This document shows, one piece after another, positions 15,086 through 59,689 of a DNA stretch of 64,000 nucleotides. Position numbers and translations under genes: made by a program. This stretch comes from Mobula hypostoma (lineage: Eukaryota), in contig NC_086097.1 of NCBI RefSeq assembly GCF_963921235.1, forward strand, positions 121,150,001 to 121,214,000, given 5' to 3'. The notes beneath the pieces are model-generated. The model made no database searches and was not told the origin of the DNA. It saw only the letters and a list, made by a program, of their open reading frames with translations. The number at the start of each line of letters is the position of its first letter. Position 1 is the first letter of the stretch.

Positions 15086-15186
15086 CAGACAGCACCTGAA
15101 GTCAGATCAAGACCACACGTGGAAGGGCATTCAAAGCACTCACCCTGCTCTATGTAAAAAAAAACAACTTGCCTCTGACATCTTGC

Positions 15187-15840
15187 AAACACAAGGAAAT
15201 CTGCAGATGCTGGACCCAACGTAGACTGGGAGATCGTTTCGCTGAACACCTACGCTCTGTCCGCCACAGAAAACAGGATCTCCCAGTGGCCATACATTTT
15301 AATTCCGCATCCCATTCCCATTCTGATATGTCTATCCACAGCCTCCTCTACTGTAAAGATGAAGCCACACTCAGGTTGGAGGAACAACACCTTATATTCC
15401 GTCTGGGTAGCCTCCAACCTGATGGCATGAACATTGACTTCTCTAACTTCCGCTAATGCCCCACCTCCCCCTCATACCCCATCCGTTATTTATTTATTTA
15501 TTTACACATTCTTTTTCTTTCTCTCCTTTTTCTCCCTCTGTCCCTCTCACTATACCCCTTGCCCATTCTCTGGGTTTCCCCCCTCCCCCTTTTCTTTCTC
15601 TCTAGGCCTCCTGTCCCATGATCCTCTCATACCCCTTTTGCCAATCAACTGTCCAGCTCTTGGCTCCATCCCTCCCCCTCCTGTCTTCTCCTATCATTTT
15701 GGATCTCCCCCTCCCCCTTCCACTTTCAAATCTCTTACTAGCTCTTCCTTCAGTTAGTCCTGACGAAGAGTCTCAGCTCGACTGTACCTCTGCCTAGAGA
15801 TGCTGCCGGGCCTGCTGTGTTCACCAGCAACTTTGATGTG
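15187..15840 (+). mobile_element. Penelope-like 3' fragment (EN C-terminus and 3'UTR) with a short inverted 5' cap
   Basis: RRLGDRFAEH..MNIDFSNFR; TSD TCTGACATCTTGC (15174-15186) / TCTGACATACTGC (15841-15853); its hammerhead has lost GAAAC. Confidence 0.9.
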
Positions 15841-16534
15841 TCTGACATACTGCCTATACTCTCCTCCAATCACCTTAAAATTATGCCCTCTCGTATGAAC
15901 AACTACTGCTTTGGGAAAAAGTCTCTGGCAAAACACACAATCTATGCGTCTTATCTTGTACATCTCTAAAAAATCATCTTTCATCCGCCTTCACTCAAAA
16001 GAGAAAAGCCCAATAAGACATGCACATATAGAATGTACCTTTATGAAAGGTACATTCAGGAAGTTAAATGCTCCATATTTCAATTTAAACTCACGGAATA
16101 AAGCTGCAGGCCAACCAGACTATTCTCAGTTTCCACAGGTTCAAGGCTTTTTATTCTTCCATGCTGCTCTGAGCAACTTACTTTCAGTTTAACTAACAAA
16201 GATTCCACTGCCATTTGGCAAGGTTTCCCAGCAATAAAGCTATTTCAGCATACTATGCACCCATGATAAAATGAACAATTAATAACACAGATGTTGTGCT
16301 ACAATCAGAAGAAAGCATGACAAAATAAACACACAAAATTCTCTACGCTTTTGGAGATCAGCACAAATTTGTATATGAAGCTTTTTCATAGAAACACATT
16401 GTTAATATTATTTATGGCATAAACAGATAATCATTACCTTTCCTAAATTACACCAATGATGACACTTCCTTCGTTGGCAACAAAATGCTTTAGAATGACT
16501 TCTTGTAATAAAAGATGCTACAATGAACGTATAC

Positions 16535-16597
16535 CTTGATCTCCTTCACATATTCCAGCTTATTCCTGAAAGCCCCGTCAGAGGAAGAACTACACTT
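16535..16597 (-). CDS. Candidate 63-nt phase-0 coding exon (KCSSSSDGAFRNKLEYVKEIK), gene unknown
   Basis: Minus strand ttttactttaacataacag|AAG...ATCAAG|gtatac; only one open frame; donor is weak. Confidence 0.3.
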
Positions 16598-18159
16598 CTG
16601 TTATGTTAAAGTAAAATTATTATCAAAGTACATATATGTCATCATATTCTACCCTGAAATAAATTTTCTTGTAGGTATTTGCATTAGAAAGAAATATAAT
16701 GGAATCAGTGAAAAGCTACACACAGAGACTGACAAGCAACCAATGTGCAAAAGAAGACAAATTGCAAATACTGGATGGATGGATAGATATTGGATAGATA
16801 AATATTAGTTACACTAGCTAGGCTTAAATAGAGTACAGACTCTTATTCTGGATTGTTCTCAGGCAGTCTGTTGGGATAGAGGATAACTTCCTTGCATCCT
16901 GGTTTTTGGGTGGCCAATGCAGGAACCAGGGTGCAACTACTTCAAATGGGGCTTAAAGTGTCTGACAGAGCAGTCGGTAAAGTACTGCACTACTGCCTTT
17001 CAAGCTGGGCATTTCAGATACTGCATCAATAAACTGCTGTCCCAAAAGGTACAAATTAAATTTACTAGAATGGTACCTGGAAAGAGAGACTTCAGAAATG
17101 TTAATCTGGGAATCTTCTCATCAGAGAATGTTAAGTACAGATTTTATGAACACTTATACAATCTATGAAGGACTTTGACAGAAAATGATACCTTAGACCT
17201 ATTCTTGTTCTCAGTTTCTATAAGGCATCATTTATTACATCAATAGGAAACAGAATTAATTTAATGATACACTAGAGTAAAGCACCAAGGAGAATGCACT
17301 AGTTTTGGATCACTGTTTGATTCAGAAATGAGAAAATTATTTTTTACTTAATAATGTAGATTAAGTCACACGGATGAAAGAAAAATGGAGAGCTATGTAG
17401 GAAGGTAGCGTTAGATTGATCTTCCAGTAGGTTAAAAAGTTGAGGCAGCATCATGACCTGAACAGCCTGTATTGTACTGCAGTGTTCCACTACATATACC
17501 AGTTTGAAATACCACTCTGGTAAGCTCATAACACAACAAAGCATTAGAATGGAACTTTCAATTCCCTGTACAGTAGCTTCTTATCTTTCATGCACAAATA
17601 ATACCAAAACTCTGAATTGTCACAATAAGCTAATGAAAAAGAAAACTTAAAAATAAACATTTCAAAAATAAACTGAATGTCATGCAGGTCTGAGTTTCAG
17701 CCAAATTGTCTGGAATCCAGGAAATGCTCAGTGGCTGCAGGAACCAGAATGAGAAGGTCACAGGGCCCTGAGCATTATAATCAACTTTACCTCTATTTAT
17801 GTATGTATCAGTGTATTTATTAATTAATTACAACTGCACTAACCAATCATTGCTGTGAGCATAAATGTGTTTATTTTTATATATTGGCCTGAAAAACTGT
17901 GTGGCAACAAAGGCTATGTACGCGAGAGCATTTCAGTTACTGCGTGGCCATGCACCCACACAGTGTAAAGGGAACAGTGATTATAATCGGGACTGACATT
18001 GCATTGCTCAGGATGCCATCCCTCAGATAACCCATATAACCAAATGCCCTCCTACTTGTGAAAATTATTATAAAAGATCCAAGGAAAAGCACAACTTCTA
18101 TTTCTCAATAATGTCCCAGATTTATTAGTCATTACTACAATGCTGTTCAGTAGACTGGA

Positions 18160-21300: not shown

Positions 21301-21420
21301 AATCAAGAAAACCTTCCTACTTGAAAGGGATGTGGAAACAGATTCAAGTAAAAACCTTCAAGACAATGTCTTAAGGGATAACAAGTGGAGGTAAAAGATC
21401 AGAGAAGTAGAGCTACTTAT

Positions 21421-21578: not shown

Positions 21579-22104
21579 AGTAGATCGACTTATGTTTTTC
21601 AAAGAGATGGCACAGAACAATGGACCACATTTTCTATTATGCGGCATCATATTATGTTGCTAATAATTGCTGCAAAATAGGCTACTTAAAGGGTGGCATA
21701 AGGAATCTGATGTGATTATAAGAACCGATGATAATAAAAGGCCTGATTATGCCATGGGAAAACAAAAGAATGCCTGCACAATGGAATTTAACTCAAGGCC
21801 CATTGGTTCAGCAACTGAGCTTCAGAAGTCTCAATAAAATGTGTTTATCATACAATTTCACATTTTGACAGAACATTTATAACAAGAGCTTAGAGAAACA
21901 CACTTGATATAGACTGTGCAAGTACAAGAAGTGACAGACAGTAATCATTAGCAATAACAGGGTTTCAGTTTACAATCCAAAAGCAGCCTGCGGCCCAATC
22001 AACTGCATTATAATTAGTTAATGAACATTTGAAAGATTATCACATTCAAATGATAACGTGAAGCCTGGAGTCATTACTAAGCTGATCTATTATTTATTAC
22101 CATT

Positions 22105-23705: not shown

Positions 23706-23921
23706 TTAACTTGAAAGTTCTTACCATAATATAAAGGGATTTAACTACTAAAATTACACATCATTCTCAGGGCTAAAGCTATCATCATCATCGAGGACAC
23801 TTTCAATGGGTGATGCCTCAATAAGGCGGTATCCATCTTTAAGGACCCTCACCATCCAGGACACGACCCGTTCTCAAAGTTCAAAGTAAAATTTATTATC
23901 ATTGTACAAACATGTCACCAC

Positions 23922-25290
23922 ATGCTAGAGTCAGTTATCAAAGATGTGATAACAGCACATTTGGAAAGCGGTGAAATCACCAGACAAAGTCATCACGGAT
24001 TTATGAAAGGAAAATCATGTCTGACAAATCTCATAGAATTTTTTGAGGATGTAACTAGTAGAGTGGATAGGGGAGAACCAGTGGATGTGGTATATCTGGA
24101 TTTTCAAAAGGCTTTTGACAAGGTCCCACACAGGAGATTAGTGTGCAAACTTAAAGCACACGGTATTGGGGGTATGGTATTGATGTGGATAGAGAATTGG
24201 TTAGCAGACAGGAAGCAAAGAGTGGGAATAAATGGGACCTTTTCAGAATGGCAGGCAGTGACTAGTGGGGTACCGCAAGGCTCAGTGCTGGGACCCCAGT
24301 TGATTACAATATATATCAATGATTTAGACGAGGGAATTAAATGCAGCATCTCCAAGTTTGCGGATGACATGAAGCTGGGCGGCAGTGTTAGCTGTGAGGA
24401 GGACGCTAAGAGAATGCAGGGTGACTTGGATAGGTTAGGTGAGTGGGCAAATTCATGGCAGATGCAATTTAATGCGGATAAATGTGAGGTTATCAACTTT
24501 GGTGGCAAGAACAGGAAAACAGATTATTATCTGAATGGTGGCCGATTAGGAAAAGGAGAGGTGCAACGAGGCCTGGGTGTCATTGTACACCAGTCATTGA
24601 AAGTGGGCATGCAGGTACAGCAGGCGGTGAAAAAGGCAAATGGTACGCTGGCATTCATAGCATGAGGATTCGAGTACAGGAGCAGGGAGGTACTACTGCA
24701 GTTGTACAAGGCCTTGGTGAGACCACACCTGGAGTATTGTGTGCGGCTTTGGTCCCCTAATCTGAGGAAAGACATTCTTGCCATAGTGGGAGTACAAAGA
24801 AGATTCACCAGATTGATTCATGGGATGGCAGGACTTTCATATGAAGAAAGACTGGATGAACTAGGCTTGTACTCATTGGAATTTAGAAGATTGAGGGGGG
24901 ATCTGATTGAAACGTATAAAATCCTAAAGGGATTGGACAGGCTAGATGCAGGAAGATTGTTCCCGATGTTGGGAAGTCCAGAATGAGGGGTCACAGTTTA
25001 AGGATAAAGGAGAAGCCTTTTAGGACCGAGATTAGGAAATACTTCTTCACACAGAGAGTGGTGAATTTGTGGAATTCTCTGCCACAGGAAACAGTTGAGG
25101 CCAGTTCATTGGCTGTATTTAAGAGGGAGTTAGATATGGCCCTTGTGGCTAAAGGGATCAGGGGGTATGGAGGGAAGGCTGGTACAGGGTTCTGAGTTGG
25201 ATGATCAGCCATGATCATACTGAATGGCGGTGCAAGCTCGAAGGGCCGAATGGCCTACTCCCACACCTATTTTCTATGTTTCTATGTTTC
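23922..25290 (+). mobile_element. Young 5'-truncated CR1 LINE (RT and 3'UTR)
   Basis: YLDFQKAFDKV, GVPQGSVLGP, KFADD; (TTTCTATG)n tail; close paralogue at 61181-62736. Confidence 0.95.
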
Positions 25291-26494: not shown

Positions 26495-26812
26495 GCGCTG
26501 AAAAAGGAGGAATCTGATTGGAAAGGAGAGTGGATCATGGGAGAAAGGGGAAGAGGAGGTACCCCAGAGGGAGGTGATAGGCAGGTGAGAAGCAGAGAAA
26601 GTTTCAGAGGGGAGCCAGAATATGGAATGGAAAAGGAGAGAAGGGGGAAGGGGGAGCAATTACCACAAGTTGGAGAAATCAATAAGGTTGGAGGCTATCC
26701 AAACGGAAAATGGAGTTGCTCCACCAACCTGAGAGTGGCAGCATCACGGCAGTAGAGGAGGCCATGGACCGACATGATGAAATGGGAATGGGGAGTAGAA
26801 TTAGAATGGCTG
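26495..26812 (-). mobile_element. Old Penelope-like fragment (EN C-terminus and 3'UTR)
   Basis: Similar to ~10300-10620. Confidence 0.7.
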
Positions 26813-27344
26813 GCTTTTGGGCCTTCTCCTCAGGCAGTCTGTTGGGTTTGAGGATGATTTGATTTCACACAATTTTTTTGGAAATGAACACAGTAATATA
26901 CAAATTTTTTTAACAAGAGCCAGTCACCACAGTTCACACAGACCCCCTAGGTTCTGGAAAACAAACCAACATCAACATTCTCTCCCAGAACACCATCTCG
27001 AACATTGACACCCCCATTACACTCACCAGGCCTCGTCATTTAGATGCTAAAACCAGATTCATAAAACTGCGCTCTACTTCAGGTTCTATAGTAGGAAGAG
27101 ATTATGTTGCAGTCAAAGGAAAAGATTCAAGGACATTCTGGGAAGCTTCTTGAAAAAAAATACAATGACCCAAACTACTCATGGGAATTTCAAGCCCGTG
27201 ACACTCAAAATGAAGAAACAGCATTTGGTATTAAAATCCCGAAGTTCATGCCTTGGGGGTACACAGCATGACAAAATAATAACATAACACACCAGCATTA
27301 ATAACATAAGTACCACTTCATCTTTCAACCCACTGCTTACCGGC

Positions 27345-27839: not shown

Positions 27840-30094
27840 CTTTGAAATATTAGGTGCTTTTACAACAACTTATAAATTATTTTTTGCCAAATATGTCAGG
27901 AATAATTATATAAAATTGAAATATACTATCATTTTTCTCACCATCTTTTTCCAATGTACTTAAAAACTTGGGATGTGGAAAGAACTGTAGTTCTTGCTTA
28001 CCTATGCCTTCCATAGAAGTAACCATACTAACTAAAGCAGCTGAGAAGTTGTAACACATACAAAAACGCACGTAAGACAGCAGTCATGGAGAGGAATAAG
28101 CAGTTGATGTTTTTTTATGCTGAGACCCTTCATCGTGACCTGAAATGCCTTGGCCCGAAATGTTGACTGTTTATTCCTCTTCATAAATGTTGCCTGACCT
28201 GCTGAGTTCCTTCAGCATTCTGCGTGTGTTTCTCAAGATTACCAGCAACTGGAGAATCTCTTGTGTTTATGAACATTTGTAATGATATGACAATGACAGT
28301 AGTGAAATAAAAACTTACATATGAGTAGCATCTTTCATGGCCTCGGATTTGATGACTCAGGAACCTCTCGGTGGACAGAAACCTCAACACTATAGGACCT
28401 TGCAAGATGAATATTTGTACCATTATGGGCTTGATATTGAATTTCAGTCCACAACTTTTAAATGACTTTCTAGTCTCAACTAGTAACAATAATGCTCCCT
28501 AAAAAGAGAAAAAAATACCAGGCTGCAACATGCTTTGCATTGCCTTTAAAAATTTTTTACTTGTTAGCTAAATGTCCTGTTAGGAGATGTCCAGATGTTG
28601 CCATCCCAATTCTTTTGGTCAAATGATGCAGTATAATCTTGCACAATTATTGTGCCAAAACTGGTTAAAAAAGTTACAATAAATTCATGGTAGAAAAAGA
28701 TAGAGTCCCACAAAGTAGGGATCCTACACATCTGAAGTGAAAGAAATGTTAATCTGGGTAGGATTTGTGGCTGTGGCAATCAATGCACAATAATATTCTC
28801 TGATTAACAAATGAACAATAAGCTCTCCACAATGGAAAAATACAGTGAAGTTGCTGGAATTGACTTTCAACTTAAAGATTCCACATGCACCAGCTTCCCA
28901 TTTTTAGACATGGGATTTTTAAAGAAATACATGGAGATCATTTAGGGATAAATTTACAACAGTTGAATCAACCAATCCCAGAGGAGCTACATTTAGCGTT
29001 AGATTCAAGATTCAATCTATTGTTTGTTTTATCAACCCAGACTGAAAATGGCAGAGGCAAAGTATAGACAGAAAAAAAAATGCAAAGCAATATTAAATTA
29101 GTAGGGATAAGGGACTCATAAAATAATTATCATGATTTCCAGTCTGAATTGCTGTCACCTGATATGCATTGAAGAGGAATAATACTAGTACATTTTCATT
29201 CCCATTATGGCGCAAGTTTGTAAAAGAAACCAACTATACAGCAATAAGTTCATAAATATTGCAATAGCTAATATAGATTACAAATAAAACCTGTACTTCC
29301 ACAATTTAAGCCGTTGAAATTCTGCAGTGCCACTACATGTCCTACATTTTGTGCCCAATTCAATTTTCACAGTAAACAATCTATCATTGATTATCAACCA
29401 CAATATCACTCTTTTAAGCTCAGCACACAGAATATCTCTGTGCTCCCAAGGAAAAACAGATTGCTCTGGATGCCTCTTATCCCTTGCACTTCAATTAAAT
29501 GGCTTAGGCAGCAAAATCAAAGATGCTCCCAGCACTGCAGAAAGCAATTTCTTCCGTTCGGATACACTACTTCTGCCAAGCCAATAATCATGCATGATCA
29601 TCTCCATATGTATAATGCTCCACAATGATCTGAATCAAAGCATATGAAGTGTCGATATGGGAACAGAAACCACAATGAAGTTACTATAATAGTTCACTGG
29701 TACGTTCAGCAGGCAAGGGACAACCGGACTTGGTCAAACAAATTGATCACTGTTTTCTGCTCAGATTGTATGGAATACTTGTATACTTTATTGCAGTCAA
29801 TCAATATACTCCCCACCACACATCTATAGAAGTTTGTCAAAGTTTTAGATGGTATGCCAAATTGTCGCAAACTTCTGAAGAAGACAGCTACATTTGAATA
29901 AGTCCGTTTTAAAACTGTACTAATTACTTTTAGAATTATGTTAACATTACAATATCCTTACAATTGCTGAAGTGGCTAAGGGGAAGACCTGATAACTGTC
30001 TGGCTTCCTTTGCCAATGTAAAGTCTAATATAAGATAAATCTACAGTTGGAGGAAAGGTGAAATATTTTGGTTGGTTAAAGGTACTTAATTCTA

Positions 30095-31000
30095 GTCAAA
30101 AATGGCCCAACGCATCACTGGCACCAGCCCACCCTCCATCAAGTACAAGTATACAGAAAGGTACCCGAAAAGGGCCAGTAACATCATGAAGGATTCAACA
30201 CACCCTGCTCATGGACTGTTTGTCCCACTCCAGTCAGGGAAGAGGCTATGTAGCATCCGTGCCAGTACCACCAGAGTCAAAACCAGTGAAGCTGCTCAAT
30301 GCCTCCACCCACCAATTCCACCACCACTTTTTTTTATTTCTTTATGTACACTTTATGTACAACCTAGTCTCACTTTATGGACATACAAGCAATGTATATA
30401 AGCTATCTTATATAATTATATTTATTGAGATTTTTTTTAATTGTTACTGTGTTATCTTCTGCGGTTTTTTTATGCTGCAATGGATCCGCACTAACAATTA
30501 TTTTGTTCCTCTTACACTTCTGTACAGGAAATGATATTAAACAATCCTGAATTTTGATTAGTTTATAAATTAGGGTTATCAAGAACACCAACTACCTCAC
30601 CATTTTCAACATATTTCACTATATTTTATAATTAATAATCGAGGAGGAAGTACAGAGGCCTTAGGTCCCACGACAGCAGGTTCAGGAACAGTTATTACCT
30701 TACAACCATCAGGCTCCTGAACCAGCATGGGTAACTTCGCTCACCTCAACACTGAACGAATGCACAACCTATAAAGGACTCTACAACTCATGTTCTCAAA
30801 ATTATTATTTATTTATTCATTATTACTGTTTGTTTTGTATTTGCACTGTTTGATTTCCTTTGCACACTGGCTTTTGCCCATCTTCGTGTGTAGTATTTCA
30901 TCGACTCTGTCGTGTATCGACTGTGAATGCCTGCAAGGAAATGAATCTCAGGGACATTTACTATATGCACTTTTACAATAAACTTATTTTGAACTTTGAG
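30095..31000 (+). mobile_element. Two short Rex1/Babar 3' fragments in tandem
   Basis: AQRITG..RASNIMKDSTHPAHGLF; second copy has the AATAAA..TTTGAACTTTGA tail also seen at ~57530-57910. Confidence 0.7.
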
Positions 31001-31435: not shown

Positions 31436-32148
31436 CTTAGTGGCCACTCTATTAGGTACAACTGTACTGCTACTCGTTAATGCAAATAACTAATCAATCA
31501 TGTGGTGGTAATTCAATGCATAAAAGCATGCAAACATGGTCAAGAGATTCAGTCAACACACACAAAAAATGCTGGTGAACACAGCAGGCCAGGCAGCATC
31601 TATAGGAAGAGGTACAGTCAACGTTTCGGGCCAAGACCCTTCGTCAAGAGATTCAGTTATTGTTCAGATCGAACAACAGAATGGGAAAGAAATGTCATCT
31701 AAGTGACTTTGACTGTGGAATGATGGTGCCAGATGGGGAGGTTTAAGCATCTCAGAAACTGCTGATCTCCTGGAATTTTCATGCACAACAGTCTCTAGAG
31801 TTGACAGAAAATGAAGCAGAAAACACAAAAAAATCCAGTGAGCTGCAGTTCTGTGGGTGAAAATGCCTTGTTAACGGGAGAGGTTGGAGGCAAATGGCCA
31901 GACTGGTTCAAGCTGACAGGAAGGTGGCAGTAACTCAAATAACCTTAAGACTATAAGACCATAAAACAAAGGAGTAGAAATCGGCCATTCGGCCCATCGC
32001 GTCTGCTCTGCCATTTTATCATGAGCTGATCCTTGCATTACAACAGTGGTGTGCAAAATAACATCTCTGAATACAGAAAACATTGAAGCTATAGCAGCAG
32101 AAAACTACACTGGGGTGAAAACGGCACCTAATAATGTGGCCACTGATT
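31436..32148 (+). mobile_element. Tc1-type non-autonomous DNA transposon carrying Penelope and CR1-tail insertions
   Basis: TIR AGTGGCCACTCTATTAGGT / ACCTAATAATGTGGCCACT, TA on the left; second copy at 55712-56271. Confidence 0.8.
31554..31643 (-). mobile_element. ~90-bp Penelope 3'-terminal insertion truncated within the hammerhead core
   Basis: TSD CAAGAGATTCAGT at 31541-31553 and 31645-31657. Confidence 0.8.
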
Positions 32149-32679: not shown

Positions 32680-34535
32680 ATTCCTTCACAAATTCCTATA
32701 CTGGTCTGCCAGAATCAACTGCACTCAGCAGCTGCTTCATAAGCAGGGAGCAATATTTAGCCTTCAAAGAGCTAATATGCCATTGTCCAGGGATTGAATT
32801 AATGACGTACAGTTAGGTGGCAGGTAGATACTATACACATTATTCTTTACCAAGAGTTTGGCTTTTGGATGCGCAGAGCAATTATCTAAAATCAGCAGTA
32901 GCTTAAAATTTGTGTCCAGACCATCAGAGTCACAGAGAGCTCTTGCTTCTGGAATAAAGATCATTCCAACGTAAGCAACACACACTAAGTGCTGGAGGAA
33001 CACAGCAGGCCAGGCAACATCTATGGTAAAAATTACAGTCGACGTTTCGGGCTGAAACCCTTCAACAGGACTGAAGAAAAGAAACTGAGTAGATTTGAAA
33101 GGTGGGGGAAGGGGAGAGAGAAACACCTGGCAATAAGTGAAACAGAGGGGGAGGGGTGAAGCAAAGAAGCTGACTGGTGAAAGAGACAGAAGGCCATGGA
33201 AGAAGAAAGAAGGGGGGGGGGACGCACCAGAGGAGGCGATGGGCGGGCAAGGAGATAACATGAGGGAGGGACAGAGGGATGGGAAATAGTGATGGGGGGG
33301 TGGAGGCATTACGGGAAGTTTGAGAAATTGATGTTCATGCTATCTGGTTAGAGGCTACTCAAACGAAATATAAAGTATTGCTCCTCCAACCTAAGTGTGG
33401 CCCTATCCTGACAGTGGTGGAGGCCATGGATGGGCATATTGGAATAGGAATGGGAAATGGAATTAAAATGGGTGGCCACTGGGAGATCCCGCTTGTTCTG
33501 GCAGATGCTCAGCGAAGTGGTCTCCCAAGCTACATCGGGTCTCATCGATGTACAAGAGGCCACACCGGGTGCACCGAACACAATATATGACCCCAGCAGA
33601 CTCACAGGTGAAGTGCTGCCTCACCTGGAAGGACTGTTTGGGGCCATGAATGGTAGTGAGGGAGTCATCTACTGTATTTTTTTCCATACATGCTGCCTGG
33701 CCTGCTGAGTTCCTCCAGCATTTTGTATGTATTGCTTTGGATTTCCAGCACCTGCAGATATCCTCTTGTTTGTCATTCCAATGCAATGTCAGTTGTAATG
33801 CATCCTTTTCTGTTGGCATGATAATTTACTGGAAACTGCTTTGAAAGCTCTGGGATGTCAACTTTTGCTGATGACTAACAACTTACACCTGTGGGTTCCT
33901 GCAGCCCAACACAATGCCACGATCTTTGGATGCTTTATAGCCTGTTGGCAATTCTTCATCCTCGGTAGTCCACATTCGTCTTGGAGTACAGCGCCAATAT
34001 AACGCGGTTTCGTCCGCATTGCAGACTGACTCAGGACCTAAATTTTCATCAGAAACTAACTTAGCAAACCCAGCAGCTGCTTCCTTCTCTGCTGAACATG
34101 TTTCACAACACACTGCACAAAATGTTATGCTATGTCACTGCTTGAAACACTGAAGCCACCCTTCACTGTAGTCACACTCATAATCCAGTCCTAATTCTTC
34201 AGGACAAAATTTTGCTTGCTCATTCACCATTTCTCCTGACAGTTCTACCTTCACTGATGTGGATTTAAACCACTTTATGAGAACTTGATCTAGTTCTGAA
34301 CATCTTCCATCTTTCATCTTTCATTGTTTTCTTTATGGACATCTGTTTTTTTTTGATTTGCTGTCAGCAAAGAACTGAAGCAACTTTTCTTTTTGTTTCT
34401 TTATATCATAAACTGTGGAAGAGCCAATGTTATACAAGTCACATATGATTTTCACAGACACACCACTGTCAAGTTTTTTCAGAACTTCCACCTTATCTTG
34501 TATAAATAACATATGGTATTTGTGCTTCACACCAC
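32680..34535 (-). pseudogene. Degenerate Tigger/pogo (CENP-B/jerky-like) transposase
   Basis: Fragments 34333-34530 (HTH: KVEVLKKLD..IGSSTVYDIKK), 34135-34317 (LDQVLIKWF..SEGWL), 33883-34113 (NADETALYW), ~32764-32965 (LILDNCSAH, LPPNCTSLIQSLD); split by a PLE at 32975-33772. Confidence 0.9.
32975..33772 (-). mobile_element. Penelope-like foldback insertion: long minus arm with GIY-YIG remnant, short plus arm
   Basis: VIYCVRCTRCGLLYIDET; TSD TCATTCCAACGTAA (32961-32974) / TCATTCCAATGCAA (33773-33786). Confidence 0.88.
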
Positions 34536-37614: not shown

Positions 37615-38192
37615 AAAGCACAAGAGATTCTGCAAATACCAAAAACTCCAAAGGAACACACACAACATGCTGTATGAATTTAGCAGGTCAGGCAGCATCT
37701 ATGGAGAGGAATACACAATCAATGATTCAGTGTGAGACCCTTCATCAAGACTGTAAGGAAGGGGAAGAAGTCAGAATAAGGTGGTGGAAGAGGAGGGAAG
37801 GAGTACAAGCTGGCAGCTGATAGCTGAGACCAGGTGAGCGAAAGGGGAAATTAAATCAGAAGCTGGGAGGTGATGGGTAGAAAAGATAAAGAGCTGAAGA
37901 AGAAACAATCTTGAATCAAGAGAAGAGTGAACCATGGAAGAAAAGGGAAGGAGGAGGGGTATCAGAGGGGAGCGGTAGGCAGGTTAGGAGAAGAGAAGGG
38001 TGAGAGGGGAGCCAGAATTCAGTTAGCTAGCTTTGGCTGAATAAACATTTGGCCAGAATGGCGAATGGAAAGAAGGGGAAAGGAGAAGAAATTACTGGAA
38101 ATTAGAAAACTCAATGTTCATGCCACCTCTAGCCTCAGGATAGATGCTAATCAGCCAGAATATGAGGTGTTGCTCCTCTAAACTGAGAGTGA
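37615..38192 (-). mobile_element. Old Penelope-like 3' fragment
   Basis: Reverse-complement similarity to ~13390-13900. Confidence 0.75.
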
Positions 38193-38627
38193 CTTGTCCA
38201 AAGTACTTCCAATAATTTGCCAATAGCATTAAGGAAAAGCCAATTTTCCTCCAAATTCAAAAGAAACAGATCCCAATGGAAAAGTTCATCCAGAAATTTC
38301 TGAAAACACACTGTTCTCCACTACACCAGAAAACAAAGTATATTATCATCAATTCTCTGCAAAGGAATTCAGAGGTTGACTATTTCAATCTCAACTCCCT
38401 GCAGAATCTCTAAGACCCTCAATCCTAAATGGTGCATACACTACTCTTTTAGAATCTCGAAAATCATTTTACTCATCACCTAGCGAAAGTCAACAAATAC
38501 AATTTGCATAGTTATTGTTAGGTCTGTACAACTACGTTTTAGGAGAGTTGCAGAAGCCAGTCTTATCATACGCCAAAGTAATATTTAGCCAATCAGCAGG
38601 TCAAGAAACTTGCCATATGTAGATTAG

Positions 38628-41035: not shown

Positions 41036-41461
41036 TTATTAATAAATTAATATATAAAGGCTTGACCACAAGCCAATGCTCTCTTTGGTAAATATGATGC
41101 AAATATTTGAGAGCTGCTGGCTGTCAGAACACATAAAGCACAGTTGGAGCTCATCAAGTACTCAACCCCACAGCAACTTTCCCTCATTGCAAGCTTCTGT
41201 AGTGCTATGAATTCAATAAAAGATTTATTAGTCAGTTCTCAGCACCTCACTTCCTAAAATCCAACAAATTCCACTAAATATTCAGATAATATAAACCCTA
41301 ATCTAAAAATTAGGAGTTTATTACCCCTGTCAGTATCTAAGACATATAAATATATATATATAAATATATATATATATACTGCAGAAGAGTTCTCCGTAGC
41401 ACAGCATATTAGAAAGTTAAAGTTGATGTAGCTGCTATATAACAGTTTCTAGTAGTTAAGT

Positions 41462-41872: not shown

Positions 41873-41910
<38 letters not shown>
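41462..41910. mobile_element. Old Penelope foldback insertion ending in an expanded (TG)n microsatellite
   Basis: Minus arm ~41462-41600, plus arm ~41620-41880 with degenerate CTGATGA hammerhead; (TG)n at 41875-41910. Confidence 0.75.
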
Positions 41911-41911
<1 letters not shown>

Positions 41912-42354
41912 TGCAGTAGTTCAGGAAAATTGCATTTAGTTTTCTGCTGCTGTCATTTACTGTCAAATTCAAGGGTTGGTACATGTTAACTGCCTCATGA
42001 CATTTACACCTTTAATGTAAGGGTCCTTTTTTGCAGCAAATTCAAAAGCCCCACGAAAGTCTGGGTCAATGATCTACAGACAGGATGAGGACATTGGTTT
42101 TTTGTAGTCAAGAATCCATTCAGAGAACAGAAACTAAAGAAATATCACATGATCATTGGTTATCTATTTTTTTAAAAATCAGGTTGAGAGAAATATTGAC
42201 AGATTAATCTCTGCTAACATCCTGGGTCCTGATCCTTTCTGGTCTCTTTTCTTGGGAAGGAAAATTTTAGCAGTCATATAACCTTAAATTAAGAGTACTT
42301 TATAGTCAACTAAAGGAAGTCTAAAATAGGAATATTCGACAATTATCAGAGATG

Positions 42355-44851: not shown

Positions 44852-45758
44852 CATTAGATTCCAGTCAATTGGGCCAGCGGCTAGTTGGGACAGCTGCTTA
44901 TTCGGGACAACTCTAACTAATCAAGAAGATTACTGGGATGTATTTGGAACATTATGCCACTTAGTTGGGGCAGGAGACTGTTGCCGAATGTTTTAACGGC
45001 CACACAAGTGCATGCAGACTAACCAGGGTATGTGGCCATTAGAGTGAACAGTTTTTCAAGTGTCAGTTATGTGTGTTTGTATTCAAAAAACAGTGATTTT
45101 TGTCACAGATAGTTGGCAAAAAATAAGCAGTGAGAGAATTCTGAACTTTTTTTACTCTCTGCAATTTCAAGCATTCAGGTTTAGAAGTACCTGAAACAGC
45201 CAGGAGAGAAAATGAAATGACTTCACTACTTCACTAGTTAAGTACTAAGAAATGTGAAGGTACTGACAATCATCTTGAATGTTACAACAAAAATAAAAAT
45301 TTGGAAGATGCAATTGTCAATAGCATTGCATGAAGACAGTCCATTATCTGCACTGATTTTGTTCATTATCTACACTGGATGAATTCCTCTGTTGATAACT
45401 ATTAGGAACTAATATACAGTCTTATAGTAAACCACAAACAAGAAAAAATCTGCAGATACTGGAAATCCCTTCGACTGGTTTCGGCCCGAAACGTCGACTG
45501 CTTTTTTCCATAGATGCTGCCTGGCCTGCTGAGTTCCTCCAGCACTTTGTGTGTGTTGCAGTCTTATAGTACTACTGGTAGTATTTTATTTTTTTTCTGT
45601 ATTTTATTTAAATACATAATTTGTTACTCAGTTAAACGGTAGTTTGTCTTCTTATACATTTTTTATCTACTTCCATGAAACTTTGACAAATGGAGCAGCC
45701 ACTTAATTGGGTCAAAACATACTGTTCCCGAAGTAGCCCAATTAACTATAATCCACGG
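44852..45758 (+). mobile_element. Tigger/pogo-type non-autonomous DNA transposon
   Basis: Imperfect 23-bp TIRs ending AATTGGGC, TA on both sides; partial copies at 27345-27839 and ~58218-58492. Confidence 0.72.
45430..45558 (+). mobile_element. 129-bp Penelope-derived insertion with inverted cap
   Basis: Perfect 13-bp TSD CAGTCTTATAGTA at 45417-45429 and 45559-45571. Confidence 0.85.
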
Positions 45759-47099: not shown

Positions 47100-48170
47100 C
47101 TGACTGTCTGTCTCTCTCTCTCTCTCGCTCGCCCTCTCTAAGGCTGTTACTGATTCACTCACTCTCTCCCCCTCCCTGTTAACTGACTTCTCTCTGCACA
47201 ACTCTACAACTGACTCTATATCTCTATCTCCCCCCTCTCTCTCTCTCTCTCGCTCGCTCTTCCTGTTCCTATTCCCGTAACTGATTCTCCCTCTTAACTG
47301 ACTCTCTCTATTCCTGTTACTGATTTATTCCTCTATCCCGTTCACAGTTACCGATTCTCTCCACCCATCAAGTTACTATTCTCTCAATACCATTCACTCT
47401 GCCCACCCCGTTACGAAACCCTCTGTTACCCATTCCCTGTTTTGAAACTCTGTTACCCCCTTCCCTGTTACGAATCCCTCTGTTACCCCTTCCCTGTTAT
47501 GAATCCCTCTGTTCTCCCTCCCTGTTATGAATCCCTCTGTTCCCCCTCCCTGTTATGAAACCCTCTGTTCCCCTCCTCAATATGAATCCTTATGTCCCCC
47601 TTCCTGTTACAAATTCTTCTGTCCCTTCCTTTTATGAGTCCTGTCCCCCATTAAAAATCCTTTTCTGTGTCTTCACCAGTATGAAGCTGTCTTGTCCCAC
47701 CCACCATTATGGATCTTGCTTCCCTATTACGAATCCTTCTGTCCCCCATTCTAAATACCACAGACCCCTTCATGTTACGCATTCCTGTCCCCCTCCCTGT
47801 TACAATTCTGTGCCTGTTATGATTTTCTCCAACCCTCTCCCTGCCCTGAATCCCTCCATTCTTCCCTTTCCTAGTTCCTTCTGCCCCCTCCCTGTCATGA
47901 TTCCCCTTATCCCTCCATTACTGATTCTATCTCCCTTTCACCGAGCTTGTCCATCACCTAGCTACTATTTTTCATTCTTTGCTCTCTGTTAGTGATTCCC
48001 CCTCATTTCTCTGTTAGTGTTTTCCTCTCCTTCAGTTGCCCTGATTCTTTCCCCAATTTTTGTTTCTTCTTCATTCTCCTCTCTACATCTCTCCCTTTCA
48101 TTTCTCTCCTCTGATTGCTCTCTCTCTCTCTTTCATTTCTCTTCTCTGATCTCTCTCTCTCTCTCTCTTA
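47100..48170. repeat. Pyrimidine-rich tract with (CT)n runs and a degenerate ~28-bp minisatellite
   Basis: Unit CCCTGTTATGAATCCCTCTGTTCCCCCT repeats most clearly at ~47405-47620 and decays on both sides. Confidence 0.85.
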
Positions 48171-49149
48171 TTGCTCTGTTCTTATAACCTTTATAACCAT
48201 ACTGAAGAAGGCATATGTTGTCCATCTGCATGCAACAGTATTTTTTTCCTCTTGCCTCCCCCTGCTGGTTAACTACTTGTCAGCCAGCACACCAGCAATG
48301 CAGGGCAGACACAATAAATTGCAAATATACAACACTCCTCCCCTTTAAATCAAACTCTCCTCATGAAGTGTAGATAAAGTGGACAGCCAGGGCAGAAATG
48401 GCTAATATGAGAGGGCATAAATTTAGGGTGATTGGAGGAAAGTATAGGTGGGATGTCAGAGGTCACAGTGTTGGGTGTGCGGAATGTGCTGTCAAAGTTA
48501 TATGCATAGGGACATTAAGAGACTCTTGGACACATGAATGAAAAAAAAATGAAGGGCTCTGTGAGAGGGAAAGGTTAGGCTGATCTTGAAGTAAGTTAAA
48601 GGGTTGGTACAACGTCATTGGTCCAAAGGGCCTGCATTCTGCCATATTCTATGCCCATCAGTGCTGCAAATAACAGACACCTGGGACTGAAGTTTAGGCG
48701 CAGAACAAAATCAGGGAATTATTTTGTCTCATACTATTTTAGTTTGCCATCATGTTCAGCACCGACATCAGGGGCCAGAGGGCCTGCTCCTGTACTGTAC
48801 TGTACTGTACTGTTCCATGTTTATGTTCAGGCAAAACAAAATTAGATATCTCCAGTTTACTCTCTCTAGTGCCTAAGCTTGCCTTGTAGAGTTTGTGTTT
48901 GGGAGTAAGGGATGCTTACTAAAAATTCCACATGTATCTTGGATGTCTCTAATCACCCTCTTCTTGGTGCTGGATATAAGGCCAGACTGGTCGTCTTGCC
49001 GTGAGTTCACAGCAGATACATGGAAACAGTGGAGGACAAATCAGGTTTGATCTAGGCAGACTAATGGGAAGTTGCAGAAACAACCCAACAGGCGTCCTTT
49101 TGGTTGTGCAAGTAAGAGCCTTAGCCAACCTTTGGGAAGAAGAACTGGA

Positions 49150-49831: not shown

Positions 49832-50422
49832 CCAAATTTCTACAGATGTACTGTGGAGAGCATTCTAACTGGTTGCATCACCGACTGGTATGGAAGGGCC
49901 AGTACACAGGATCAGAAAAAGCTGCAGAGGATTGTAAGTTTAGCCAGCTCCATCATGGCCATTAGCCACCGCACCATCAAAAGCATCTTCAACAGGCAAT
50001 GCATCAGGATGGAGAAGCAACACCTTATATTCCCTCTGGGTGGCCTCCAACCTGGTGGCATAAATCTCCTTACAATAAAAAAAAATCCTCTCCTTCCCCT
50101 TGTATTCTATTCCCCACTCTGGCCTTTTTACATTTTTTCACCCCCTATCACTTCCTCCTGGGTCCTCTTCTCCTCTGGTCGACTCTCCTCTTCTATCAGA
50201 TTCTTTCTTCTCCAGCCCTTTACCTTCCCCAGCGAACCTAGCTCCACCTTCTAGCTAGCGTCCTTTCCTCTTCCCCCCCCCCCCACAACCTTTTTATTCT
50301 GGTGTTTTCCCCCTTCCTTTTCAGTTCTGATGAAAAGTCTTGACCCAAAATGCCAACTGTTTATTCATTTCCATGGATGCTGCCTGACCTGCTGAGTTCC
50401 TCTAGCATTTTGTGTGTGTTGT
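49832..50422 (+). mobile_element. Rex fragment (to ~50005) abutting an old Penelope 3' fragment
   Basis: FYRCTVESILTGCI followed directly by EKQHLIFPLGGLQPGGIN. Confidence 0.75.
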
Positions 50423-50599
50423 CTTCTATATTTGTAAGTTTGCCTGCTGGTGCTCTTGGAGACCCCCTTCATTTATCTCTCTGTCCTACTTAATCTAACT
50501 GATTTTCTTCTCTATGCCAATCATTTTTATTAGTTTCCTTCACTATCCCTTTTACGTATTTTATATTATTCTCGTTCTTTTATCGGCAAGATTTTTATT

Positions 50600-51185: not shown

Positions 51186-52763
51186 TCTTTTAACTGCATG
51201 AATTGGCATCGAGTGGCCACTTTTCACACACAACTAAACCGTCTCAGAAGTTTTTCACATCGCTTTCATGATATTAAAAAAAACACCCTGTGGCTCCAAC
51301 ACTGTCTGCTTTTGTTTACTCTCATGAGAAAAATAAGTGAATGCTTGTAAGCAGCAAGTTCTGAAACCTTTTTTATAAATAGTTTAGAGATCAATCTTTG
51401 CTGTGAGATACGTGTACTCAGTATATTTCTCATAGCTAAAGAGCCACATTGTATTGACTCACACATAGGAACAGAAAGAAAGTTCACAAACACAGTAAGA
51501 TATAGGAGCAGAATTAGGCCATTTTGCCCCAACGAGTCTGCTCCTCCATTCCATCATGGCTGATTTATTATCCCTCTCAGCCCTATTCTCCTGTCTTCTC
51601 CCCGTAACCTTTGATACACTTACTAATCAAGAACCAATCAATCTTTGCTTTAAATATACCCAATCACTTGGCCTCCACAGTTGTCTGTGGTAATGAATTC
51701 CACAGACTCACCAATCTCTGGCTAAAGAAATTCCTTTTCATCTCTGTCCTAAAGGACAAAAGAGATTCTGCAGATGATGGAATTTTTGAGCAGTAATCAC
51801 AAATGTTGGAGGAACTCACCAAGTGAGGCAGCATCTATGGAGGTGAATAAATAGGTGAAATTTCAGTCTGAGACCCTTCATCAGAGGCATTCAAACAAGA
51901 TACTTCCAGTTTATTCAAAGTTTCTTCACCGATTGCCTTTGGAAATTTCTATTCACACTGCTGCAGCCCGGATAGCAGTTGGTTTCCTGACATGATCTTT
52001 AAAGGCGTCACCGCCCTGAAGCGATAGTTATTGTTTGTTACCAATATTACATACACCAGAGGACAGATTGTTACGAAAGAAAGTGCAAAGAAATGACATT
52101 TTGAAAATGAATGAGTCATTTATCCTGATTCTTCTCTCCATGCTGCTAAATCAATGACTTTCTCACGGTTACTTTCATTTCCCCAGGTCCCCAGTCATCG
52201 TGCATTCTATGACACTGGAACCTGACCCTGATCTATCAAAGACCGTGTGGAGGCTACGGATGCATCAGCCTCCCCACGTTAAGCAAAGTCGTGCACAGGC
52301 ATTCTTCATTAAGGGAATCGACCCTGACATTACGGATTAAGTCCAGTGGCGATCAGCAAGTGGAGAAAGCGGCAGGATTGTGAGGTCTGGAACCCTGGAT
52401 CCACAGCCGCCGGAGACCTACCAACAGAGAACCCCTGAGGGGAAACTCATATTCAACTCAAGTGATCACAGGAGTACTATTACTACTATTACTTTCACTT
52501 CTACATTCTCTCATCTTTATTTCAAACTCTTATGTAGAATGTTTTCAAGTAATTTTGGAGAGCTTGTATGTACAACACATTTTGACTCTTCCATTCCTGT
52601 CATATAGAATGGCTGCTGTTCAAAGTCAAAGTAAAATTTATTATCATCATACATGCAGTATATGTTACCATGAACTGCAATGAGATTCAGTTTCTTGCAG
52701 GCATTTATAGGAAAACAAAGAAATGCTAAAGAATTTATGAAAAAAAACTAACATAAGCAAAGA

Positions 52764-54325: not shown

Positions 54326-55526
54326 AAATGAAAACCATCCCTACAAACTTAACGAAACAACTAAATCTGAGCCACAATCTTGACACAGGCCGCAGCTCAC
54401 CTCCATCTGACCAGAAGAAAAGGGCACTTCCCTGTTATACTGTGTAACTGTAACTTGTCCAAGAACTTTTAGGTTTTAAATACTTGTCTTGGTAAGGAAA
54501 TGAAAGTACGAGCTGATATGGTTAGATGAAAGGCAATAGGCTGTTTGTTCACAACCAAAACAAACAATTATGAAATGAACATTGCATAGACCATAAAGGA
54601 AGTAAATTTTTAAGGGGAGATGTATTCAATGTCTAACAGGCTACTGAGAAAGAAATACATTGATTAATAAAGGAGGGAGAAAAGAAACTGATGGAACCTA
54701 AAACATTAAATCATAAACATGAAAAATTCTGCAGATGCTGAAAATCCACAGTAACACACACAAAATGCTGGAGAAACTCAGCAGGTCAGGCAGCATCTGC
54801 GGAGATGAATAAAGAGTCTACATTTCTAGCCAAGACTCTTATTCTGGACTTGAAAGGAAGTGAGAAGATGCCAGGACCATTAACAGTTGAAGCATTAATT
54901 CTGTTTCTCTTTTCACTGCATTATTGACCTGCTGAGGTTTCCCAGTATTGTGTATTTTTCATTATACAAAAGCTGTCACTTTCTTTTGAATGTCTTTGTT
55001 GCAAATGAAGAATCTCCAGCAAAGGCTTCTTATCCTGACAGAGATAAATCTGGAATTCTCTGAAGGTCTGCACAATATTGAGGGTCGACCTTTTACAACA
55101 GAAGTAACGAGAAATGTTTTCACCAGTGAGTAGTGAATCTGTGGAATGCTCTGCCACAGATAGCGGTGGAGGCTAAATCTGTGGCTATATTTAAGGCAGA
55201 AATTGATTGTTTCCTGATCGGTCAGGGCATCAAAGAATATGGCGAGAAAGCAGGTGTATGGGGTTGAGTGGGATCTGAGATCAGACTTGATGGAATGGCA
55301 GAGCAGATTTGATGGGCTGAATGGCCTACTGTTTCTTTGTCTTATTGATCTGATGATATGCTTGTCTTTATTAGTGAAGACATTGAGTTCAAAAGTCAGG
55401 AAGTTATGTTGCAGCTTTATTAAACTTCAGTTAGGCCACATCTGGATTTTTGAATACAGTTCTGGTCGCTCATTATGGAAAGGATGTCGAGGATTTAGAG
55501 AGGGTGCAAAAAAAGTTTACTAGATT

Positions 55527-55608: not shown

Positions 55609-55711
55609 TTACTAGGATGCTTCCTGGATTAGAGGGCATGTACAAGCTGAACAGACTTGGGTTATTTCCTCTGAGGCAGTGGAGGCTGAGGGGAGATCTA
55701 ACAGAGGTTTA

Positions 55712-56271
55712 TACTCAGTGGCCACTTTACCAGGTACCCCCTGTGGCCACGATTGTATGTTCGTGGTAGCCCATCCAGTTCAAGGTTTGATGTGTTGTGC
55801 ATTCAGTGATGCTTGTCTACACACCACTGTTGAAAAGTATGGATATTTGTGTTACTTTCACTTTCCCGTCAGCTTGAACCAGTCTGCCCATTCTCCTCTG
55901 ACTTCTCTTCCTTACAAGGCATTTTAGTCCACTACTCCTTACTGGACATTTTTTTGCTTTTTGCACCATTCGCTGTAAACTCTAGAGAATGTTGGGTGCA
56001 AAAACCCCAGGAGACCAGTAGTTTTTGAGATATTCACACCACCCCATTTTGGTACTGACACGGTCAAAGTCACTTTCCTTTCCCATTCTGATGTTTGGTG
56101 TTTCTCATTGCCTTTCTTCCCCATTCTGATGTTTGGTCTGAACAGCAACTGAATCTCTTGACCATGTCTGCATGCTTTTATGCACTGAGTTGCTGCCACG
56201 TGATTGGCTGATTAGATATTTGCATTAAGGAGCAGGTGCACAGGTATACATAAAAAAGGGGCCACTGAATG
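55712..56271 (-). mobile_element. Tc1-type non-autonomous DNA transposon
   Basis: TIR CTCAGTGGCCACTTT / AAAGGGGCCACTGAA; reverse-complement similarity to 31436-32148. Confidence 0.8.
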
Positions 56272-56525: not shown

Positions 56526-57180
56526 CGGAGGGAGGAGAAGATGGCGGTGTGACGCAGCACGCGCGGCCGTTCCGAATGAATATAGATTATGTGTAACTAG
56601 GGGCCGTGCACAATCCGGATTTGATGGAGACAGCCGTGAGATGCGTAGAGGAACATCTGGAGTAACTTCTGAAATGCCTGCTTCACTGCCGCTGCTACTG
56701 TGCAATCGAGAATCTCCTGAGACAAAGGCCCCAAATCCTCGGCTTTGCGTATCGCCTGTTGCTGGGGCTGGGGTCAAAGCGCTCGGCAGAGATGGTGCTC
56801 GGTGCTCGGTGTCGAATAGGTGGTCGGAGGCTAGGAGTTTTTCGGATGGACTCGGAGTCGGACTGTGGTCGGATGCTTCCAGGATGCTGCACCGCAAGTT
56901 GGTCGTGCTGGAGGTTTACCGTCTGCGTGAGATGATGGGACTTTCGAGAGACTTTGAGACTTTTACTGTGCCATGGTCTGTTCTTATCAAATTACGGTAT
57001 TGCTTTGCACTGTTGTAACTATATGTTATAATTATGTGGTTTTTGTTACTTTTTTAAGTCGGATTATCCTGTGTTTTCGTGATATCATTCTGGAAAAACA
57101 TTTTATAATTTCTTAATGCATGCATTACTAAATGACAATAGAAGGGGACTGTGTATCCTCATAATCATAATAATAATAAC
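56526..57180 (+). mobile_element. CpG-rich non-autonomous retroposon inserted in a minus-strand SINE tail
   Basis: Starts GGAGGGAGGAGAAGATGGCGG; T-rich 3' part; (ATAATC)/(TAA)n tail; SINE sequence resumes at ~57200-57440. Confidence 0.55.
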
Positions 57181-59050
57181 AGTGCCAATAACTAACACAT
57201 TCCAAAGGCGGCCCACAAGTGCTACCACACACCCAGTGCCAACCTTGCATACCCACAGCTCACTAACCCTAACTATAAGTCCTTTTGGAATATGGGAGCG
57301 AACTGGAGCATCCAGTGGAACCCCACACGGTCATGGGGAGAACGTGAAGACTCCTTACAGATGGTGGCAGGAATCAAAACCGGATTGGTAAGTGCTGTTG
57401 CTGGTACTGTAAAGTGTTATACCAACCACTACTCCACCAAAACTGAAAGTGTACAGTTGATGGCTGCTCTCCTTCTAGTCAGGTGCTTTAGAGACTTATA
57501 GTGTGTCTCTTCTTCCTGCTGTCATTGCGAAGGAGGTACGGGAGCCTTACGTCCTTCCCCACAAGGATAAGGAACAGTTACTGCCTATCAACCATCAGGC
57601 TCCTGAACTAGTGTGAGTAAACTAAACTCTGAACTGATACCCCAACCCATGGACAATATAACTCATATTCTCAGTATTATTTATCTGTGCATGTACAGTT
57701 TTTATTTGCTTACGATTTATTTGTTCGTTTGTTTAAATTTTTGCAGCTTCTCTTCTTCAGCACATTGATTGTCAGTCTTTGTGTGTAGTTTTTCATTGAC
57801 TCTTTTGTATTTCTTTGTTCTACTGTGAATGCCTGCAAGAAAATAAATCTCAAGGCGCTATATGGTGAAATGTCTGTACTTTAATAATAAATTTACTTTG
57901 AACTTTGAATTTTACATTAAGGTTCATTCTTCAGGATGTTTATTTGCTTTATTCAAGACTGTGCTTCTCTGAAAACCTAGCCCTGTTATTGATCAACTGA
58001 AAGTATTCTGCTAAATTGCCACAGCTAATCTTTCCCTGTTACATAATTTGCTATGGTAATAGGAAGCAATATTCCTTGTTTACCATATGCACTGTGCACC
58101 CCATTTGCCCTAATTTCTGTAAAACTTCAGAATCAGAATCAGAGTCAAGTTTAATATAATTTGCATATGTTGTGAAATTTGTTGTTTATGGCAGCAAAAC
58201 ATAAAATACAATAATAAGTATGGATCCTGGATAATTGGGCCATTGGTTACTCGGGCATCAGTTTATTTGGGACAACTCTTAAAGAACAAAAATTAATTGT
58301 GAAAATTGCCAGGATTCCCTTTGTTTATTTGGGACACTATGCCACTTAATTGGGACAGAAAACTGTTGCCAAACAGTTTCTAAGTAGTGTCATATGCGCG
58401 CATTTGTGTGGTCATTAGACACTACGGCCTGCTTAGAGCGAACATTTTCTAAATAGCATCAGTTACTGTGTTTGTGTTCAAAACGCAGTGATCAAGGACC
58501 ATCAGCCTCCGACAACAATCGTGCTAAGCTCCGAGTTGAAGTTGATGAACAACATTCTGGCGTATGAGGCATCATTTTCTAGGTGGTTCAGGATGGATTG
58601 GAGGGGCCAGGTCTATGGCATCATCAGTGGACTGGTTTGAGTGGTAGATAAACTGGAACAGGACCAATGTAGCTGGAAGATGGCATTTTATGATCCATGA
58701 CCAACTGCTCAAAGCACTTCATGATTGTCGAGGTCAGTGCCACTGGGCAGTAATCGTATAGGCCAGTTACCATCACTCTCACTGGAATACAGGGCTACCT
58801 AGAAGCCTGCAGGCACTGTGAACTGTTTCAGAGAGATATGCAAGTTATCTGTTAAGACTTTGAAAGCTGGGCTGCACAGTCCTTCAGTACCTGATGAGGT
58901 ATGTTGTCCAACCCTGTGGCTTTGCTTGGGTTTACTCTGGCTTGGTTGGGCTACATTCCTCAAAACCAGTTACATTCAATAAAACCAGTTATTATATCTT
59001 GAACCATCTAACTCCTGAACCAGTGGATAACTTCACTCACCTCAACTCTG

Positions 59051-59214
59051 TACAGTCGACATTTCGGGCTGAGACCCTTCGTCCTGACGAAGGGTCTCGG
59101 CCCGAAACGTCGACTGTACCTCTTCCTAGAGATGCTACCTGGCCTGCTGCATTCACCAGCAACTTTGATGTGTGTTGCTTGAATTTCTAGCATCTGCAGA
59201 ATTCCTCGTGTTTA
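59051..59214 (+). mobile_element. 164-bp hammerhead foldback mini-element
   Basis: 59051-59083 is the reverse complement (2 mismatches) of 59086-59118; perfect TSD CACCTCAACTCTG at 59038-59050 and 59215-59227. Confidence 0.9.
59081..59116 (+). ncRNA. Minimal type I hammerhead core
   Basis: GTC CTGACGA AGGGTCTCGGCCC GAAAC GTC GACTG. Confidence 0.8.
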
Positions 59215-59689
59215 CACCTCAACTCTGAACTGATTCCACAACCAATGAACTCATGTTCAAAGACTGTACAACTCATGTTCTCAGTATTATTTATTTACTT
59301 GTCACTACACAATAATTGAGGGACTTCCTCACCCAACAAGGTCCCTCCCTCTCCAGTAGCAGAAGAACCCTACATTGTGGTCCTCCCCCATCAAGGCCTT
59401 GCAGTGGCTGTACTGAGCTTCAGTGTGTCCATCAGCATGTACTCCTGCAGCCTGGAATGGGCCAGTGGCCAGCATACCTCCACGGGCATCTCAATATGCC
59501 GGCAGACCAGCAAATTTTGGGCAGACCAAAGAGCCTCTTCCATTTTGAGCTTGGCTTTATAGCCTCACACTTTGCTACAGCTCTTTGCCACAGGGAGGAG
59601 GGAACATCGACTCAGACCTTGAGAGGCCTGCGTTGGGCATTTTCATACCTTACAAGGTGCAGATTGGAAGTCTGTGTGGGGCGCCACTC

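Follow-up and report, generated by a model that had tools for sequence, protein, structure and literature searches.

Target-site duplications with a modal length of 13 bp at Penelope-like insertions in Mobula hypostoma

Insertions of a Penelope-like element (PLE) were analyzed in one window of the Mobula hypostoma genome, a stretch of 64 kb (contig NC_086097.1, positions 121,150,001 to 121,214,000); all counts refer to copies inside it and not to genome-wide copies. The insertions are flanked by target-site duplications (TSDs) for which 13 bp is the mode, not a constant. With a probability of roughly 0.6, these are the TSDs of a Neptune-type PLE whose ribonucleoprotein nicks both strands at T-rich sites, with a preferred overhang of ~13 nt, and primes from both target ends. 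A preliminary description of the window had proposed a nearly fixed stagger of ~13 nt, cut by the GIY-YIG machinery without sequence specificity.

Duplications flanking the insertions

A hidden Markov model (HMM) of the element 3' end defined 17 insertion units in the window; the fragment 26682-26814, which has no 3' end, was left out of the unit count. Three TSD callers were used, lengths were anchored to the element ends, and 272 mismatched left/right flank pairs served as the null. With the last caller, the scores of nine of the 17 units ranged from 8 to 15, where the null reached at most 8, and two further units had p = 0.033. The 11 units with a TSD have lengths of 7, 10, 10, 13, 13, 13, 13, 13, 14, 15, and 15 bp (median 13, standard deviation (SD) 2.4, range 7-15). 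Eight of them lie within 13-15 bp, which occurred in 1.1% of trials under a flat 7-18 distribution (p = 0.011).

Exact 13-bp repeats flank unit A (10067-10079 and 13901-13913, + strand) and two two-armed mini insertions (45417-45429 and 45559-45571; 59038-59050 and 59215-59227). The TSD of unit A and its right flank also align to another host repeat near 55400. A single-arm insertion on the - strand has a 15/15 repeat (31539-31553 and 31643-31657), with up to 4 bases common to the element at its 5' junction. This pair had been described as a 13-mer at 31541/31645; the match was reproduced, whereas the true length is 15 bp. Element-shared bases had been trimmed there, yet such bases had been kept at 13901, 45559, and 59050. 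All four perfect 13-mers of the preliminary description were recovered at their positions, and the + strand of the window holds each of them exactly twice. The same applies to its near-matches, 11/13 at unit B (15174-15186 and 15841-15853) and 12/14 at a two-armed insertion (32961-32974 and 33773-33786), the latter also found by the TSD caller. These six pairs all adjoin element ends and score 9-15 against the null maximum of 8, and their assignment to independent PLE insertions is upheld. Their target words are unrelated, as had been claimed, with 3-8 bases in common between pairs at the best offset. The interval given for the finding started at 15174 and omitted its own first example at 10067.

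Further TSDs flank a two-armed mini insertion absent from the preliminary description (21406-21420 and 21579-21593, 13/15), a two-armed insertion found by the TSD caller (36541-36550 and 36716-36725, 10/10), and an old two-armed insertion with a (GT)n expansion (41451-41460 and 41915-41924, 9/10). The last of these, 10 bp long, was called only once the boundary had been shifted beyond the (GT)n run. A (TG)18 microsatellite at 41875-41910 has grown out of a Penelope arm, at its GT-rich 3' end. The two calls with p = 0.033 are a weak 10/13 repeat at an old two-armed insertion (28042-28054 and 28270-28282) and a 7/7 repeat at a young single-arm insertion in a host long interspersed nuclear element (LINE) (55517-55523 and 55609-55615, + strand). 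A two-armed insertion at 37347-37559 has ambiguous flanks, with a 9-bp match 12 nt beyond the element end, and was left uncounted. Its flanks (37341-37359 and 37539-37559) would hold a 12-bp word if the right copy has a 9-base insertion.

Empty sites were modeled, and 12 such queries were searched against the window; the sites compared are paralogous, not orthologous. Uninterrupted host-repeat copies in the window align colinearly, with no indel at the insertion point, to four of the 11 called sites, and at these the duplicated word is present once, as expected of a true TSD. The empty paralogues lie at 56113-56235 (- strand) for site 31539, at 30689-30815 and 57590-57684 for site 59038, at 17048-17081 and 62226-62265 for site 55517, and near 48392-48470 (- strand) for site 15174. 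For unit A, only separate pieces align in this search. The copy at 55517 has a clean 7-bp duplication backed by empty paralogues, and it is young (93% identical to A), so short duplications do occur. Two LINE copies with reverse transcriptase (RT) frames, 23814-25270 and 61148-62713, are 93-95% identical over 300-nt blocks, and one of them is an empty paralogue for the 55517 site.

The repeats could in principle be chance matches or pre-existing repeats chosen by eye. The window holds 71 exact repeats of at least 13 nt within 4 kb, chiefly repeats and microsatellites, and two of the calls reach only p = 0.033. However, the null never exceeded 8 in 272 end-anchored pairs, and the empty paralogues hold the word once. 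A chance origin of the four perfect pairs was ruled out on these grounds, and for the set of calls it has next to no probability.

Arms, tails, and target preference

Two outward-facing 3' arms are present in 11 units, and in all 11 a tail of ~35 nt is found on exactly one arm; with independent arms at 50% each, the chance of this is 0.0005. All 11 have an inverted, 5'-truncated arm and a 30-40 bp tail at one end, the arrangement expected of endonuclease-positive (EN+) PLEs. A possible twelfth, old two-armed unit (2322-3329) is indistinct and was excluded from the tail count. In unit A, the inverted 3' arm at 10081-10881 (- strand) is a tail-less copy of 13047-13843, with 96.4% identity over 805 nt, and the tail HMM placed the ~35-nt tail on the right arm only (13867-13900, + strand). 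In unit B (15174-15853), the left arm is inverted and consists of tail only, and the right arm is tail-less. Units B and 45417 have no overlap between the arm with the tail and the arm without it, which is the geometry of L1 twin priming.

Some further features of the arms were noted. A perfect 23-bp inverted repeat (10880-10902 and 10984-11006) marks the internal junction of unit A between the inverted arm and the 5'-truncated body. At the tail-less junctions 10067-10079 and 31539-31553, the duplicated word resembles the element sequence that it replaces within the element interior (at 31544-31553, ~7/10 bases as judged by eye), which would fit imperfect annealing of the overhang to the RNA. 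An exact 19-bp tail-like repeat (1788-1806 and 3310-3328) flanks a 1.5-kb block that holds an old Penelope arm (2322-3281); either a 19-bp duplication or a pair of tail fragments could account for it.

At nine sites, the nicked strand was read for 10 nt in the 3' direction from each inferred nick, and T was found at 82 of 180 positions, against 51-53 expected (p ≤ 5e-5 from 20,000 global or local random draws, after allowing any base). The excess is symmetric, with 40/90 on the top strand and 42/90 on the bottom strand. When all long calls are set to 13 bp, T occupies position +8 in 14 of 18 cases. Over all eleven sites the count is 94/220. The proposed absence of sequence specificity does not stand, as the same T-rich flanks are seen at the six sites of the preliminary description (49/120, p = 0.01). 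Landing sites appear to be T-rich 3' of both nicks, which hints at cleavage of both strands by one enzyme complex.

How narrowly the stagger is set can be judged from these data together with the lengths. The clustering of the proposed ~13-nt stagger was confirmed, but the spread of 7-15 bp and the 7-bp case with empty paralogues are at odds with "nearly fixed", and the invariant TSD length that marks DDE transposons and long terminal repeat (LTR) elements was not observed. On a strict account, GIY-YIG sets exactly 13 nt with no sequence preference, and deviations come from later mutation or microhomology. Five of the 11 calls are 13 bp, and the calls of 14-15 bp overlap the element ends by 1-4 bases; chance extension adds ~0.7 base per site, so lengths of 14 and 15 are compatible with 13 plus microhomology. 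GIY-YIG homing enzymes also normally cut with a fixed spacing, which is 2 nt (PMC3664794; this and the other papers cited here were covered in part). Against this account stand the young copy with its clean 7-bp TSD, the perfect 10/10 repeat at 36541, the T-rich flanks, and the TSDs of 8, 9, or 10 bp or none of rotifer Penelope (PMC3846280). A strict 13-nt stagger is therefore quite improbable.

An alternative is a broad, L1-like spread (~7-18 bp), in which the second nick is made later and uncoupled, by the element or the host, and the pile-up at 13 reflects the small sample and the loss of short TSDs. PLE TSDs have been described as variable (10.1101/2021.04.23.441226; PMC9977147), and this has been attributed to variation in how far the second cleavage lies from the first (10.1101/2021.04.23.441226). 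The observed 7-15 bp also lie inside the L1 range of 7-18 bp with a peak at 13-15 (PMC6007223), and short calls are censored. Yet no call in the window exceeds 15 bp, although long TSDs are the easiest to detect, and the lengths are clustered relative to the flat distribution. The symmetric flank skew and the 11/11 tail asymmetry point to a single enzyme acting in a coordinated way and treating both strands alike. We consider a broad spread unlikely.

The element and its relatives

The longest copy, unit A (10080-13900), is 5'-truncated, and no full-length copy lies within the window. It contains an open stretch of 576 codons (11749-13479, + strand), in which profile matches and motifs indicate an RT, a CX4CxxC linker, and a GIY-YIG domain; upstream of 11749 the frame is disrupted by one frameshift and one stop. 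The profile matches are weak and under the curated cut-off (RVT_1, E = 3e-4; GIY-YIG, E = 1e-3). An RT with a C-terminal GIY-YIG domain in a single frame is the hallmark of EN+ PLEs. The protein has the motifs YIDD, QxxGxxMG, and VIY..YIG. The linker, CKRNKCYTC at residue 443, is conserved in the homologue alignment. C483 and C486 lie within VIY...YIG, and H508 and H524 downstream complete a CCHH set, with the histidines assigned by position. Among 8000 scored proteins, 939 homologues were found, the top ones in rays; the best are from Mobula hypostoma (93%) and Hypanus sabinus, followed by sharks and marine invertebrates. Comparison of the protein profile with solved structures gave no match.

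A CX2-5CxxC linker between RT and EN marks Neptune and Nematis and not Penelope/Poseidon (PMC8557442). Because the CX4CxxC linker is present, the element is not of the Penelope/Poseidon type, and by the published definitions its sequence motifs place it in the Neptune or Nematis clade. Neptune is tentatively preferred because a preprint reports Neptune and Poseidon in vertebrates (10.64898/2026.07.22.740005). Candidate hammerhead ribozymes, as expected in a pseudo-LTR, were matched by pattern at 13772, 59084, and 10152 (- strand), and the minimal motif in the 3' pseudo-LTR of unit A spans 13766-13806 (+ strand). An Rfam search did not report a hammerhead and gave two matches overall, each under its gathering score.

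Known Neptune and Nematis EN+ PLEs have the same RT, CX2-5CxxC linker, and C-terminal GIY-YIG domain with two cysteines between GIY and YIG, and likewise show 5' truncation, an inverted arm, a 30-40 bp tail at one end, and a hammerhead in the pseudo-LTR (PMC8557442). The insertions described here differ in lying outside microsatellites, and their TSDs are readable for this reason.

Relatives were also searched in other collections. A DNA-pattern scan with the element 3' motif gave one match in a bacterial assembly and none in viral contigs or metagenomes. A protein-profile scan yielded 80 metagenome loci of distant relatives and none in viral contigs. Eleven of these metagenome loci held 12 inverted-repeat candidates, 11 of them without a convincing TSD. 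One candidate (locus L076, 544-699), in which a 14-bp direct repeat flanks a 106-bp fold-back and a further 28 nt, showed no link to a Penelope end and was dropped. At another locus (L016, 50-207), a 158-bp fold-back centered on a hammerhead-like motif lies upstream of a related open reading frame, and no flanking duplication was seen. Elsewhere in the window, 47402-47641 is a tandem array with a 28-bp period and ~8.7 copies.

Models for the two nicks

In the reading preferred here, the element ribonucleoprotein would nick both target strands and leave 3' overhangs, preferentially of about 13 nt. Sites with T-rich sequence in the 10 nt 3' of each nick would be favored, with no fixed sequence being read. 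In two-armed copies, both 3'-OH ends would act as primers for reverse transcription: the arm with the ~35-nt tail would arise from priming at the distal RNA start, and the tail-less arm from priming at the proximal start or at a point upstream of it. The two cDNAs would be joined internally, and gap filling would duplicate the overhang. TSDs of 7-10 bp may come from trimming of the overhang or a looser second nick, and junction microhomology may add 1-2 apparent bases. The repeats, the empty paralogues, the clustering of lengths, the restriction of the tail to one arm, and the skew of the flanks are observed; we infer the maker of the second nick, the coupling of the nicks, and the trimming; both nicks would be made by the GIY-YIG domain.

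Since a single GIY-YIG homing nuclease works with fixed 2-nt spacing and leaves 2-nt overhangs (PMC3664794), a 13-nt stagger would need two binding positions. One tentative arrangement, to which we give only a modest chance, is a Neptune dimer that makes concerted nicks 13 nt apart on the same helix face, with each protomer reading a T-rich tract immediately 3' of its own nick and the RTs split between the two RNA starts. The helical repeat of DNA is ~10.5 bp, and 2 nt plus one turn gives ~13; this is arithmetic, not evidence. The same sum (2 nt + 10.5 bp, our own arithmetic) would also suit a spacing set by host chromatin or repair, in which nucleosomal or bent DNA would present an exposed face to any nuclease and the two nicks would lie one turn plus 2-3 nt from each other. 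Similar peaks from unrelated nucleases are in keeping with that model (L1, 13-15 bp; PMC4245944). However, L1 leaves 15-bp and ZfL2-1 5-bp TSDs in one host cell (PMC4245944), so TSD length follows the element, and a spacing set by the host is highly improbable.

The preliminary description had set the stagger apart from the TSDs of LINEs with an APE nuclease. This distinction fails, as LINE peaks are clade-specific, with 13-15 bp for L1, 10-12 bp for RTE, and 3-5 bp for L2/CR1 (PMC4245944 and PMC6007223, both citing a 2008 paper). The element is of a known kind, an EN+ PLE, and its modal duplication length is ordinary for target-primed retroelements. Full-length human L1 TSDs peak at 14-16 bp and short ones are tied to 5' truncation (PMC2912911); twin-primed L1 retains TSDs of 10-20 bp, and short TSDs accompany simple 5' truncation (PMC4245944, PMC2912911). 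The 7-bp single-arm copy at 55517 parallels the latter case. Twin-primed (5'-inverted) L1 shares the modal TSD of 13-16 bp with a tail of shorter ones and the priming of cDNA from both target ends, and RTE shares a T-stretch signature near the site (PMC4245944, PMC2912911, PMC6007223). L1 and RTE differ in their APE nuclease, poly(A) priming, and one-sided signatures, whereas T-rich sequence is found here 3' of the nick on both strands; unlike in twin-primed L1, the arms usually overlap.

Among PLEs, the Poseidon protein of Anolis carolinensis (PAc), of the Penelope/Poseidon clade, cleaves and extends both strands in vitro, and two RNA start sites delimit the tail (PMC11167929). Its targets are AT-rich and a dimer is predicted, but it has no Cys linker and a 5'-ATT-3' cut motif is reported (PMC11167929). 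The parts of that paper covered, and a search of its supplement, gave no nick-to-nick distance and no TSD length. Penelope of Adineta vaga has inverted pseudo-LTR units inside one TSD, a tail on one repeat, and proof from empty sites, and its TSDs are below the mode found here (PMC3846280). A literature search, with subscription papers, Repbase, and bioRxiv supplements outside it, found neither a distribution of TSD lengths nor a flank logo for PLEs, any Neptune family included. In the parts covered, PMC12602865 does not mention TSDs, and PMC9977147, PMC8969392, PMC9004415, and PMC5718144 add no lengths.

Several points weigh against the reading of two nicks by a Neptune-type complex with a preferred overhang. 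The sample is 11 TSDs from a single window, and three of them are 7-10 bp. The 99th percentile of the null is 7; TSDs of 7 bp or less are thus indistinguishable from chance, and the mode is biased upward. Four unit boundaries were revised after inspection of the sequence, and two caller outputs were trimmed where the match extended into element bases (17 to 15 at 21406, 16 to 13 at 59038). In six of the 17 units (2322-3329, 37353-37538, 37613-38196, 50004-50423, 51753-51887, and 54711-54954) no TSD was called; these are 71-84% identical to the unit A arm, with age and subfamily confounded. The T-rich signal emerged post hoc from a small number of sites, and there is no excess at the two weakest calls (12/40). 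Most two-armed units other than B and 45417 have arms that overlap in sequence, so two RNAs, a tandem RNA, or strand displacement would be needed. Microhomology at priming was not significant (8/11 by eye, p = 0.057), and a scripted recount, for which the units' own arms served as part of the reference, is a rough guide only. The in vitro data concern Poseidon, not Neptune.

Second-strand cleavage in PLEs and the origin of inverted, one-tailed insertions are stated to be unresolved in the covered parts of PMC8557442 and PMC11167929. If the dimer model is true, the mode at 13 bp, the symmetric skew of the targets, and the presence of a tail at one end only would all follow from a single complex. 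In a high-copy vertebrate family that avoids microsatellites, junctions are readable, which would allow genome-wide counts of TSD length, target logo, and tail side and their comparison with nick maps. The concerted two-nick model becomes testable through the symmetric skew of the targets and the strict rule of a single tail.

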